Assembly: GCA_039795875.1 (NCBI GenBank)
Contig: JBDKKY010000001.1
Span: 750-64,749, forward strand
From: Candidatus Parcubacteria bacterium
GTDB lineage: Bacteria; Patescibacteriota; Minisyncoccia; Phycocordibacterales; CAIZLB01
DNA length: 64,000 bases
Direction of reading: 5' to 3'
The notes below the pieces were generated by a model. It made no database searches, had not been told where the DNA came from, and was given only the letters and a program-made list of their open reading frames with translations. The number at the start of each line of letters is the position of its first letter. Positions within the stretch are counted from its first letter, which is position 1. Below are positions 26,273 to 28,110 of this stretch, one piece after another. The position numbers and the translations under genes are program-made.

Positions 26273-26566
26273 ATACTAATATTGTATCACCTACTTCAAG
26301 AAAAAGAAAAAACCTTTATGAACATAATTCACACAGGTCTTTTCTCAACAAATAAGAATTTTCACAAATCAACGCTTGTTACAAGTTAAATAATTAAATC
26401 TATTATTTTGTTCTGTTTGGCCAGTCTTTCCTGGGGTCAAAATCTTTACGTGATTCCCACGCTCTAAATGCGACGAGTTAGAGTCTCGTTTATACAGTGC
26501 AAGCAAAGTATAAGAACGACCGCTATAAATTTTATACCCTCCCTAAAGAGGACATAAAACAGTTTT

Positions 26567-28110
26567 CACTTGAATAAATCCACGAACAGCTTCCGCTACC
26601 CGTGCCTTGTTACGACTTACTCCCTGTCACCAAGCTTACCGTAGTCCCACACATGGTGAGATATCGGGTACTCCTGGCTCCCTTGAGTTGACGGGCGGTG
26701 AGTACAAGACTTGAGAACGTATTCACCGCGGTATGTCTGACCCGCGATTACTAGCGATTCCAGCTTCACGAAGTCGAGTTGCAGACTTCGATCCGAACTG
26801 AGGATGGTTTTAAACGTTTTGCTCCGAGTCGCCTCATTGCGTCGCGTTGTACCACCCATTGTATTATGTGTGTAGCCCAAGATGTCAAAGGGACATGCGG
26901 ACCTGGCGTCATCCTCGCCTTCCTCCCAGCCTACAACTCACAAACACATATCTTTTACGATATCGTTTATGAACTTTAGGCTGGGCAGTCTCGTGTGACA
27001 CTTATAACACACGACGAGGGTTGCGTTCGTTACCCCACTGAAGGGAACAATTCAAACCACGAACTGACGACGGCCATGCATCACCTGCCTAACTGTCTTG
27101 CGAGGGTTCTAGTTTCTTAGAACTTTCAGTTAGGTGTCAAACCTTGGTAAGGTTCTTCGTTTACCTACGAATTAAACCACATAATCCACCGCTTGTGCAA
27201 GTCCCCGTCTATTCCTTTGAGTTTTAGCCTTGCGGCCGTACTACCCAGGCGGTACACTTATCGCGTTAGCTTAGTCTCACAGAGGGTCGATACTCCGTAA
27301 AACTAGTGTACATCGTTTAGGGCGTGGACTACTGGGGTATCTAATCCCATTCGCTACCCACGCTTTCGTGCTTCAATGTCAGGAATGTGCCAGTGTGCTG
27401 CCTTCGCTTTTGGTATTCCCCATGATATCAACGGATTTTACCCCTACTCCATGAGTTCTACACACCTCTCACATCCTCTAGCGATACCGTTTCTTATGCG
27501 AGTCCCCAGTTAAGCTGGGGGTTTTAACACAAGACTAATATCGCCATCTACGCACCCTTTACGCCCAATAATTCCGGATAACGCTTGGGGTACTCGTATT
27601 ACCGCTGCTGCTGGCACGAGTTTAGCAACCCCTTATTCATGAGGTACAATCAATAAACTTTTTCCCTCATAAAAGGTTTTTACATACCTAAGTACTTCAT
27701 CAACCACGCGGCGTCGCTCCATCAGACTTTCGTCCATTGTGGAAGATTCTCGACTGCAGCCACCCGTAGGTGTATGGGCCGTGTCTCAGTCCCATCGGTG
27801 AGGGTCAGCCTCTCAGCTCCTCTAGACGTCATTGCCTTGGTAGGCCATTACCCTACCAACTAGCTGATATCGTGCGGGCCCGTCCTGAAGCATAATGCCT
27901 TTAACAGCAAACTTTACTCCGTAGAGACCATCGAGTATTAGCATATCTTTCGATATGTTATTCTCGACTTCAGGGAAGGTACCCACATGTTACTACCTCG
28001 TCTGCCACTAAACATAACCTTGATATAATCTCAATATGTTTCGTTCGACTTGCATGCCTTATCCACGCCGCCAGCGTTCATCCTGAGCTAGGATCAAACT
28101 CTAATTAAAA
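26567..28110 (-). rRNA. rrs: 16S ribosomal RNA
   Basis: reverse complements of universal sites: AGAGTTTGATCCTAGCTCAG (28084-28103), GTGCCAGCAGCCGCGGTAATAC, a 1392-region variant and AAGTCGTAACAAGG; about 1.5 kb, no intron-sized insertion. Confidence 0.9.

Follow-up and report, generated by a model that had tools for sequence, protein, structure and literature searches.

Anti-Shine-Dalgarno sequence loss from a Parcubacteria 16S rRNA and extended -10 promoter boxes close to start codons

Analysing the window, i.e. the whole 64 kb stretch of DNA studied here, which belongs to the Patescibacteria/Parcubacteria, we confirmed that the anti-Shine-Dalgarno (anti-SD) sequence has genuinely been lost from the 16S rRNA of this organism, where the conserved tail GAUUUAUUCAAGUGAAAACUGU stands in place of CCUCC. 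From this loss and the lines of evidence given below, we propose that most genes are probably preceded by extended -10 promoters so near the ATG that they would give leaderless or near-leaderless mRNAs. The loss of the anti-SD at the level of the lineage is already published: CCUCCU was detected in just 48% of Parcubacteria, with an overlap with the loss of uL1, and function was left open (Tsurumaki et al. 2022, RNA 28:1041, PMC9297842). The window shares both lineage and trait with these Parcubacteria, its nearest relatives also lacking CCUCC. That study describes no replacement tail, spacer hairpin or alternative start signal such as we report for the window, and what is new here is the finding of a positioned extended -10 box as the only motif enriched upstream of the starts.

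The 16S rRNA gene and its 3′ tail

The following elements were located in the window, by the methods given in brackets.

26568-28109, minus strand: full-length 16S rRNA gene, without introns (Rfam RF00177)
26581-26604, minus strand: intact helix 45, CACGGGUAGC-GGAA-GCUGUUCGUG (sequence, Infernal alignment, MFE fold)
26568-26580, minus strand: 13-nt 3′ tail GAUUUAUUCAAGU, at the place of the consensus GAUCACCUCCUUU, with no anti-SD (Infernal alignment)
26559-26567, minus strand: a further 9 nt, GAAAACUGU, invariant in close relatives (alignment of close relatives)

The gene matches the Rfam model from position 1 to position 1533 (1350.5 bits, untruncated), and helices 44 and 45 are both intact in the Infernal alignment. 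Because it lies on the minus strand, positions 26560-26600, in which an earlier sequence-only reading had placed the 3′ tail, show the 16S 3′ end as its reverse complement. That reading had described helix 45 as well formed with a GGAA loop, and the tail as devoid of a recognisable anti-SD. Both descriptions were borne out: the 10 pairs of helix 45 are all standard or G-U, with the GGAA loop present, and Infernal aligned the tail GAUUUAUUCAAGU to the consensus GAUcACCUCCUUu with CCUCC absent, neither this motif nor a close variant of it being found in the 13-15 nt past helix 45. The 16S gene is not linked to any 23S gene, and an ORF is located in its downstream spacer.

The tail does not stem from a sequencing error, since five independent contigs (L027 and L121-L124; 16S identity 88-94%) share it with no difference over 22 nt, while the adjoining spacer diverges. 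In the alignment of close relatives, all columns are invariant through GAAAACUGU and divergence starts directly past 26559, the mature 16S 3′ end possibly falling anywhere within 26559-26568. A comparison of 16S 3′ ends across the lineage, which the sequence-only reading had suggested, was made on 120 loci, mostly from CPR, retrieved with a helix-45 pattern as stretches of at most 8 kb around the rRNA gene. The nearest named 16S was that of Ca. Taylorbacteria (L017, 84.8% identity), followed by the MAGs L112 and L116 and by L031 (Ca. Paceibacteria), all at 82-83%. CCTCC was present in 59 of the 120 loci, namely in Magasanik-, Uhr-, Falkow-, Moran- and Kerfeld-bacteria, true Saccharibacteria and a few non-CPR organisms. 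It was absent from 58, which have in common an anti-SD-less tail related to that of the window (GGAWYAAUUCAAUUUGAAA and others) and comprise Taylor-, Nomura-, Zambryski-, Jorgensen-, Lloyd-, Nealson- and Staskawicz-bacteria, Minisyncoccia and Paceibacterota.

Sequences preceding the start codons

The gene set consists of the 65 ORF-called genes of the window, with starts taken from a simple longest-ORF caller, some of which are wrong (the transketolase gene, for one, probably begins 4 codons inside the called start). The genes for which the sequence-only reading had noticed the lack of SD motifs were found by Pfam, namely clpB (3656-6364, minus strand), infB (8024-10333, plus), recA (41742-42863, plus), ftsK (38842-41292, plus), rpsB (16880-17548, minus), tsf (16326-16826, minus), metG (45309-46763, minus) and the class-II GlyRS gene (49725-51113, minus). 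This lack was observed throughout the set: at -22 to -3, GGAGG, AGGAG, GAGG and AGAGG occur in none of the 65 genes, GGAG in one and AGGA in two, all SD-like motifs being below their rate at non-start ATGs. Similarly, a free-energy scan revealed a depletion of SD pairing with the canonical tail, as 8% of the genes versus 32% of the control ATGs reached a duplex energy of -5 kcal/mol or lower, and SD 5-mers located 4-10 nt before long-ORF ATGs occurred at 0.47x background. The depletion of every SD-like motif supports the SD-independent initiation that had been proposed.

In an unbiased search of the -20 to -1 region, the top k-mer was TATAAT (9 occurrences versus 0.5 expected, p=2e-9), followed by TGCTAT/GCTATA, and the only enriched motif was the extended -10 promoter box TGnTAtAAT, with a modal gap to the ATG of 6 nt, a positive signal that the sequence-only reading had not noticed. 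The boxes below were located from the sequence.

6371-6379, minus strand: TGCTATACT, 6 nt before the clpB ATG (6364), leaderless-type
13487-13495, minus strand: TGCTATAAT, 6 nt before the ATG of ORF 13037-13480
47893-47901, minus strand: TGATATTAT, 6 nt before the ATG of ORF 46798-47886
61009-61017, minus strand: TGCTATAAT, 6 nt before the ATG of ORF 60331-61002
29895-29903, plus strand: TGCTATACT, 7 nt before the ATG of ORF 29911-30705
61553-61561, minus strand: TGGTATAAT, 7 nt before the ATG of ORF 61027-61545
31970-31978, minus strand: TGGTATAAT, 8 nt before the ATG of ORF 31320-31961
35858-35866, minus strand: TGATATAAT, 8 nt before the ATG of the prepilin-peptidase ORF 34953-35849
51123-51131, minus strand: TGCTATAGT, 9 nt before the ATG of the GlyRS gene 49725-51113
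19627-19635, minus strand: TGATATAAT, 11 nt before the ATG of the release-factor gene 18623-19615, with a predicted leader of about 5 nt
21292-21300, minus strand: TGGTATAAT, 11 nt before the ATG of ORF 19937-21280

The following observations bear on the nature of these boxes. First, 25 of the 65 genes have a -10-like hexamer at a distance of 4-12 nt from the ATG, versus 4.1% of the control ATGs (p=3e-18), and among the 40 hexamers upstream of real starts, 25 are found at spacers of 6-12 nt (p=5.5e-9) and 15 at 6-8 nt (p=5e-7). Second, T1, A2 and T6 are invariant and the TGn extension, with TG two to three bases upstream, accompanies 17 of the 25 start-proximal hexamers (68%) versus 9% of all such hexamers (p=1e-12), which argues that they are promoters and not AT-rich sequence. 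Third, a pyrimidine at -1 together with an A at +1, which is the usual transcription-start dinucleotide, occurs in 55 of the 65 genes versus 44% of the controls (p=1e-11), and the usual gap between a -10 hexamer and +1 is 6 nt. ATG opens 59 of the 65 genes, including all 23 leaderless-type genes. Fourth, the -35 element is not enriched (at least 4 of 6 matches in 19% versus 17%), as fits extended -10 promoters. Fifth, the boxes also occur before genes that are merely 2-24 nt from the preceding gene; for instance, the box at 13487-13495 reaches into the final codons of the preceding ORF, 13488-14651, with 7 nt between the two ORFs. Sixth, a TGnTATAAT box is kept at a similar distance before orthologous genes in L123, L124 and L027, the L124 ortholog of ORF 19937-21280 having TGCTATAAT 8 nt before its ATG. 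From the -10 spacing and the dinucleotide we infer leaderless transcription: about one third of the genes look leaderless and about another quarter look to have leaders too short for an SD. With promoters this near the start codon, the 5′ end of most messages probably coincides with the AUG or precedes it by a few bases.

In the 120 loci, gene calls at the first start codon were too noisy (ATG just 62-69%, with little difference between groups), and we therefore used a statistic that does not depend on start calls, i.e. the distance from the hexamer to an ATG opening at least 100 codons, spacings of 5-8 nt being compared with those of 20-40 nt. The -10 peak reached 4.8x in the window (P=1.6e-9) and 3.35x in the anti-SD-less relatives (P=1e-16, spread over 36 of the 58 loci) versus 1.0x in the relatives with a canonical tail, a correlation that rests on few independent evolutionary events since both groups consist of few clades. 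AGGAG and GGAGG were enriched (2.4-2.6x, P ~1e-5) in the canonical-tail relatives only, and AAGGA was modestly enriched even in the anti-SD-less ones (2.0x, P=0.0015).

Leaderless initiation is not the whole story, since 18 of the 65 genes have their box 10-25 nt away, which implies leaders of 4-19 nt, and another 24 lack any -10 box in the 25 nt before the ATG, this boxless third including a GC-richer, probably foreign island; a leadered-type route must thus serve part of the genome. It is unlikely, however, that the data as a whole reflect SD-independent initiation of the kind used by Bacteroidia or Mycoplasma on mRNAs with ordinary leaders. Ribosomes would then load on unstructured A/U-rich leaders through bS1-dependent or standby binding, and the TAtAAT-like motif, instead of fixing the 5′ end as a promoter, would either reflect AT-richness or act as an enhancer at the mRNA level. 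Such a mode would agree with the boxless and distant-box genes and with upstream regions that are A/T-rich and G-poor (11% G at -20 to -1), but the motif matches the sigma-70 extended -10 form exactly, AT-richness alone would produce neither this form nor the sharp 6-nt spacing mode nor the start dinucleotide, and relatives with differing tails show no corresponding variation in the motif.

Alternative readings of the 16S tail and of the spacer

The conservation of the tail, which is invariant in close relatives and whose type (AUUCAA core) is conserved across many Paceibacteria, implies that it is under selection for something. A new pairing between this tail (GAUUUAUUCAAGUG...) and a complementary A/U-rich motif near the starts is nonetheless very improbable. 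The tail (13 or 19 nt) forms duplexes with the -22 to -2 or +3 to +23 regions no better than with control ATGs (MWU p at least 0.9), no enriched k-mer is complementary to it over at least 5 nt, and the same upstream motif occurs in relatives with different tails; with no signal upstream or downstream of the starts, this pairing was rejected. The tail contains a candidate mini-hairpin, UUCA..UGAA, with the apparent covariants UCCA..UGGA, CUCA..UGAG and GUCA..UGAC. Hairpins of at least 4 bp were found in 64% of the anti-SD-less tails versus 45 +/- 6% of shuffles, with no enrichment among these tails for hairpins of at least 5 bp, and that of the window has a loop of just 2 nt and a predicted energy of about 0. 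As a possible remnant of the aSD:ITS hairpin in canonical CPR pre-rRNA, it is a weak lead.

It is about as improbable that translation is served by a canonical copy elsewhere, the 16S gene found in the window being degenerate, secondary or misassembled. The window gives a view of 64 kb of the genome, in which the lack of linkage to a 23S gene and the spacer ORF would suit this reading, but the full-length Rfam match (1350 bits) with intact helices 44 and 45, the identity of the tail in five independent assemblies, the anti-SD-less tails of 58 species-level genomes and the lack of SD motifs in the window genes themselves all speak against it. CPR genomes usually have a single rRNA operon.

The sequence-only reading had regarded the anti-SD as either lost or displaced by an insertion; the loss stood and the displacement did not. 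The relevant spacer element is as follows.

26529-26560, minus strand: spacer stem-loop of 14 bp with a 4-nt loop, the 5′ arm of which includes CCUCUUUA at 26544-26551 (MFE fold)

The CCUCUUUA motif (26551-26544, minus strand) begins 30 nt past helix 45, about 24 nt beyond the expected CCUCC site, and CCUCUUUAGGGAGG at 26538-26551 is similar to the CCUCCUUUCUAGGGAG that directly follows helix 45 in canonical CPR 16S genes. A mature 16S running about 35 nt past helix 45, with CCUCUUUA pairing to AGAGG-like SD motifs, is the least credible of the alternatives and was rejected, because the motif belongs to an arm of a perfect 14-bp hairpin (6 pairs of which are maintained in relatives although both partners have changed), gives way to CCUAUUUA or CACCUGAUUUA in the closest relatives that share the identical tail, the changes there being compensatory, and has no matching motif upstream of the starts. 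AGAGG-like motifs, by the enrichment of which the sequence-only reading proposed to recognise a displaced anti-SD, are found upstream of none of the 65 genes (AGAGG, GAGG and AAAGAGG, 0/65), and duplexes with the CCUCUUUA segment are weaker at gene starts than at control ATGs. Within 80 nt of helix 45, CCTCC occurs in 0 of the 58 anti-SD-less relatives and CCTC in 7 of the 58, which is the chance frequency (10% in shuffles).

Proposed initiation mode and known systems

In the Parcubacteria/Paceibacteria-type CPR lineage, CCUCC has been replaced by a different, conserved tail in the 16S rRNA, thereby leaving ribosomes unable to select starts by SD pairing. We propose that most genes have their own sigma-70-type extended -10 promoter (TGnTAtAAT, the -35 being weak or absent) 6-12 nt before the ATG, and, given the usual 6-nt gap, transcription would start at the A of the AUG or a few nt before it. 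The resulting leaderless or near-leaderless mRNAs would be recognised via their 5′-terminal AUG. Promoters would also lie inside the 3′ ends of upstream genes, so that tightly packed genes would be expressed singly, not from SD-punctuated operons. The remaining third of the genes, with no -10 box within 25 nt, must initiate by some other SD-independent means; unstructured A/U-rich leaders, re-initiation and RNA processing are among the candidates.

In the GeneMarkS-2 study, a Pribnow box 6-8 nt from the start is the signature of leaderless transcription, and occurs in about 25-50% of the transcription units of the 'group C' genomes (Actinobacteria, Deinococcus-Thermus; bioRxiv 10.1101/193490). 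The window is like group C in having its -10 motif near 6-8 nt from the starts (mode 6; 25 of 65 genes). However, group C keeps the anti-SD, with SD sites for leadered and operon-internal genes, whereas in the window the anti-SD is gone, SD sites are found in 0 of the 65 genes, and the boxes precede closely packed genes as well. Anti-SD-less bacteria include some Flavobacteriia, Blattabacterium, Mycoplasma and Ca. Carsonella (Lim 2012; Amin et al. 2018, PMC6107228). Similarly to the window, they combine a 13-nt tail without CCUCC past an intact helix 45 with no enrichment of an SD or of a complementary variant motif. These cases are sporadic genera or reduced endosymbionts with no reported promoter-at-start signal, whereas the loss in the window lineage spans many candidate phylum-level groups and comes with a positioned -10 box. 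The SD-blind ribosomes of Bacteroidia keep a canonical anti-SD, sequestered by bS21, bS18 and bS6 (Jha et al. 2021, PMC7797042; McNutt 2023, PMC9976891); SD use is missing genome-wide in Bacteroidia and in the 65 genes here, but in the window the anti-SD sequence itself is absent, not sequestered. The window contains a bS6 gene (43977-44474), which is neutral as to a Bacteroidia-type mechanism.

In mammalian mitochondria, the small-subunit rRNA has no anti-SD and the mRNAs, leaderless or nearly so, acquire their 5′ ends by processing of polycistronic transcripts, whereas those of the window would come from a promoter before each gene. ORF 62885-63421 starts 3 nt past a tRNA, resembling mitochondrial tRNA punctuation. 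Our literature search returned no paper joining 'leaderless' with Parcubacteria, and passing mentions only with Patescibacteria or CPR.

Chances are about even that the whole anti-SD-less Parcubacteria/Paceibacteria radiation dispenses with SD pairing and uses gene-by-gene extended -10 promoters giving leaderless or near-leaderless mRNAs even at gaps of 2-24 nt, in a mitochondrion- or haloarchaeon-like manner, the AUUCAA-type tail having another role, e.g. in 3′-end processing or subunit joining. Bacteria seldom lose the anti-SD, and those that do forgo the textbook means of start-codon choice; gene callers trained on SD sites will misplace starts in the genomes of this organism and its relatives. 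The present proposal offers a testable account of translation initiation in a very large uncultured lineage with small ribosomes. If it holds, transcripts should have their 5′ ends on the AUG, start codons should be AUG almost without exception, and each gene should have a promoter of its own. Within such a wider re-tooling of initiation, one could re-examine the overlap that has been published for the losses of the anti-SD and of uL1.

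The 16S rRNA tail and its surroundings

A single 16S rRNA gene was found within the 64-kb window, and its minus-strand 3' end reads ...GUCGUAACAAGG CACGGGUAGC GGAA GCUGUUCGUG GAUUUAUUCAAGUGAAAACUGUUUUAUGUCCUCUUUAGGGAGGGUAUAAAA.... The features of this region are as follows:

26568-28109 (-), 16S rRNA gene (Rfam RF00177, 1350.5 bits, whole model)
26604-26581 (-), helix 45, perfect
26580-26568 (-), 13-nt tail GAUUUAUUCAAGU, as aligned by Infernal to the consensus tail GAUcACCUCCUUu
26560-26529 (-), spacer stem-loop (predicted fold; perfect 14-bp stem, 4-nt loop)
26551-26544 (-), CCUCUUUA, in the 5' arm of this stem
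25370-25443 (-), tRNA-Ile(GAT), followed by the transketolase gene

Given the minus strand, the sequence-only reading accurately described a tail devoid of anti-SD, as Infernal aligns GAUUUAUUCAAGU against GAUcACCUCCUUu, of which only GAU and a UC are kept. The 22 nt 3' of helix 45 are the same in L027, a related locus, and in L121-L124, four contigs with this tail from a metagenome scan (16S identity 88-94%). This invariance and an AUUCAA-type core conserved in many relatives imply that the tail may have some other function.

The anti-SD had been proposed to be either lost or displaced downstream, and the following lines of evidence rule out CCUCUUUA as a displaced anti-SD, leaving loss. First, CCUCUUUA lies in a hairpin arm. 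Second, beyond the shared 22 nt the relatives diverge, keeping the hairpin shape with a different sequence (CCUAUUUAUAGGG in L123, CACCUGAUUUAUCAGGUUG in L121 and L027, as counterparts of CCUCUUUA), and two-sided changes maintain six pairs. Third, none of 58 anti-SD-less relatives has CCTCC within 80 nt of helix 45, where CCTC occurs at shuffle frequency. Fourth, the AGAGG-like motifs by which a displaced anti-SD was to be checked were found upstream of 0/65 gene starts. These results apply to the 16S copy within the 64 kb covered; that a second copy elsewhere in the genome serves translation is very unlikely.

Past the variable hairpin, close relatives share the block AUUUAUARCGGUCGUU (26505-26522, minus strand) almost without change; it may act as a processing site or pair as one side of the pre-16S stem. 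GUCGAU-like motifs occur at a similar spacer position in many CPR of both tail types. The region 3' of the 16S gene (25370-26567, minus strand) also contains, before the tRNA, a 200-aa ORF (25670-26272) with a hydrophobic N-terminus, its own TGATACAAT box and no Pfam match. The post-16S spacer comprises about 300 nt without this ORF in L123, L124 and L027 versus 1125 nt in the window, which indicates a recent insertion of the ORF into the spacer. Both tRNA-Ala and 23S are absent from the window, so the rRNA genes are not linked. A PemK/MazF-like toxin ORF (28555-28962, minus strand; Pfam PF02452, 6.5e-8) lies close upstream of the 16S gene. Some MazF toxins in other bacteria cut off the 16S anti-SD; the presence of such an ORF beside a 16S gene with no anti-SD to cut is probably a coincidence.

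Anti-SD loss among related loci

A search of 185,579 species genomes with a pattern running from the end of helix 44 through the 5' half of helix 45 yielded 120 loci, most of them from Patescibacteria/CPR and a few from non-CPR genomes. The nearest 16S sequences were those of a Ca. Taylorbacteria MAG (84.8%), followed by the MAGs L112 and L116 and the Ca. Paceibacteria MAG L031 (all 82-83%). The loci split cleanly in two. The 59 with GGAUCACCUCCUUU comprise Magasanik-, Uhr-, Falkow-, Moran-, Kerfeld- and Doudna-bacteria, true Saccharibacteria and a few non-CPR; the 58 without CCUCC comprise Taylor-, Nomura-, Zambryski-, Jorgensen-, Lloyd-, Nealson- and Staskawicz-bacteria, Minisyncoccia and 'Paceibacterota', with tails that include GGAWYAAUUCAAUUUGAAA, GGAACAUAUCCAAUUUGGAA and GGAUCAAUUAAA.

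An anti-SD motif was reported in only 48% of Parcubacteria, its absence overlapping the uL1-lacking group and its meaning being left open (Tsurumaki et al. 2022, PMC9297842). Our split matches this result; the anti-SD loss in this lineage is already published. Such loss has also been catalogued in some Flavobacteriia, Mycoplasma and Carsonella, and no matching variant SD was found in anti-SD-less organisms (Amin et al. 2018, PMC6107228).

In the canonical-tail CPR loci the spacer directly after the anti-SD is CCUCCUUUCUAGGGAG or ...UAAGGAG, which gives the precursor an SD-like stretch able to pair with the anti-SD. Hairpins of at least 4 bp occur in 94% of canonical tails versus 21% of shuffles. 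Many anti-SD-less tails carry at that position a weaker palindrome (UUCA..UGAA, UCCA..UGGA, CUCA..UGAG), which may be a relic of the canonical hairpin. As to labels, L027 (JAYUTB010000010.1) is assigned to Spiroplasmataceae, yet its 16S 3' end is of Paceibacteria type and matches the window exactly, and its tRNA-Ile and transketolase are syntenic with those of the window; mis-binning or mislabelling is likely. Labels also fail to fit many 'uncultured Gammaproteobacteria' and 'uncultured Candidatus Saccharibacteria' loci (TPA assemblies), which have a CPR-type helix 45.

Signals at gene starts

A simple longest-ORF caller yielded 65 genes, which occupy 83% of the window and have approximate starts (59 ATG); clpB, infB, ftsK, metG, GlyRS, a release factor, recA, rpsB, tsf, bS6, SSB and bL25 were Pfam-confirmed. 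The claim that the genes lack SD motifs held: at -22..-3, GGAGG, AGGAG, GAGG and AGAGG occur in 0/65 genes, GGAG in 1/65 and AGGA in 2/65, all below the rate at non-start ATGs. Predicted duplexes with the canonical tail are weaker than at control ATGs (-5 kcal/mol reached by 8% versus 32%), pooled SD-like 5-mers are depleted in the window (0.47x), and the organism's own tail pairs no better with sequence on either side of gene starts than with that around control ATGs. With the anti-SD lost and SD motifs absent, the proposed SD-independent initiation is supported.

An unbiased k-mer comparison of positions -20..-1 of gene starts with control ATGs ranked TATAAT first (9 versus 0.5 expected, p=2e-9), with GCTATA and TGCTAT next. 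In 25/65 genes, but at 4.1% of control ATGs (p=3e-18), a hexamer that agrees with TATAAT in at least five of six positions is found 4-12 nt before the ATG. The gap is most often 6 nt; true starts have 40 such hexamers upstream, of which 25 have a gap of 6-12 nt (p=5.5e-9) and 15 one of 6-8 nt (p=5e-7). The TGn extension accompanies 17/25 start-adjoining hexamers versus 9% of all such window hexamers (p=1e-12), with no enrichment of a -35 element upstream of the boxes, and a pyrimidine precedes the ATG in 55/65 genes versus 44% of controls (p=1e-11). Transcription from a sigma-70 promoter normally begins after a 6-nt gap from the -10 hexamer, usually at a Y-1/R+1 dinucleotide. Exactly such a -10-to-start geometry is the leaderless-transcription signature in GeneMarkS-2 (bioRxiv 10.1101/193490). 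By box gap, 23 genes are of leaderless type (gap 4-9), 18 have predicted leaders of ~4-19 nt, and the other 24 lack a box in the 25 nt before the start. Boxes are present even where the upstream gene is only 2-24 nt away, and in one example the box overlaps the last codons of the ORF before it:

13487-13495, box TGCTATAAT

Other starts deserve mention. The ORF 62885-63421 (minus strand) has its ATG (63421) 3 nt past the discriminator base of a type-II tRNA-Ser (63424-63511, minus strand), so that cleavage at the tRNA 3' end would yield an mRNA almost without leader; the anticodon of this tRNA is ACU (loop UUACUAA), an A at position 34 being unusual outside tRNA-Arg(ACG). The GC-richer stretch ~55900-59900 encodes a GNAT acetyltransferase (57337-57906), a MOSC-domain protein (58389-59024) and hypothetical ORFs. 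None of its starts adjoins a -10 box, and one start, that of 57337-57906, has GGAG 3 nt before its ATG. This stretch is probably the 'island' of the sequence-only reading, of putative foreign origin and with foreign expression signals. The bS6 gene, whose start was called as GTG, encodes 165 residues with the S6 domain at 19-115; SSB comes next (43407-44474, minus strand), as in the usual rpsF-ssb(-rpsR) arrangement; in Bacteroidia, bS6 and bS18 with bS21 sequester the 16S tail.

Tail type and mode of initiation

The two tail groups served as a natural control, using a statistic independent of start calls, namely -10-like hexamers before ATGs opening at least 100 codons (gaps 5-8 versus 20-40). 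The peak is 4.8x in the window (P=1.6e-9) and 3.35x in the 58 anti-SD-less loci (P=1e-16; 36 loci contribute, each tail subtype reaching at least 2.9x), versus 1.0x in the 59 canonical-tail loci, relatives being sampled only near their own rRNA genes. Conversely, AGGAG and GGAGG 4-10 nt before long-ORF ATGs are enriched 2.4-2.6x in canonical-tail loci (P about 1e-5) versus 1.3x in anti-SD-less loci (P=0.2); a mild excess of AAGGA is seen in the anti-SD-less loci too. As the two groups represent a few clades, this correlation reflects few independent events. TGnTATAAT boxes are kept at similar distances in orthologous genes of L123, L124 and L027.

The best-supported proposal is a lineage-wide anti-SD loss coupled to leaderless or near-leaderless initiation, with one extended -10 promoter per gene. 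The anti-SD would have been lost across the lineage, each such promoter would produce a leaderless or near-leaderless mRNA, and for a minority of genes initiation would follow another route independent of SD. The analysis shows the sequences directly, together with their conservation and the statistics of the motifs; where transcripts begin, where the mature rRNA ends and how ribosomes are recruited is inferred. The window would work like the GeneMarkS-2 'group C' genomes, except that one 'group C' feature is missing because SD sites are unused at its remaining genes. As in mitochondria, there would be neither anti-SD nor leaders, the latter by prediction here. A literature search of incomplete coverage found nothing linking leaderless initiation with Parcubacteria. 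The positioned promoter signal offers a plausible and testable mechanism, apparently undescribed for this lineage.
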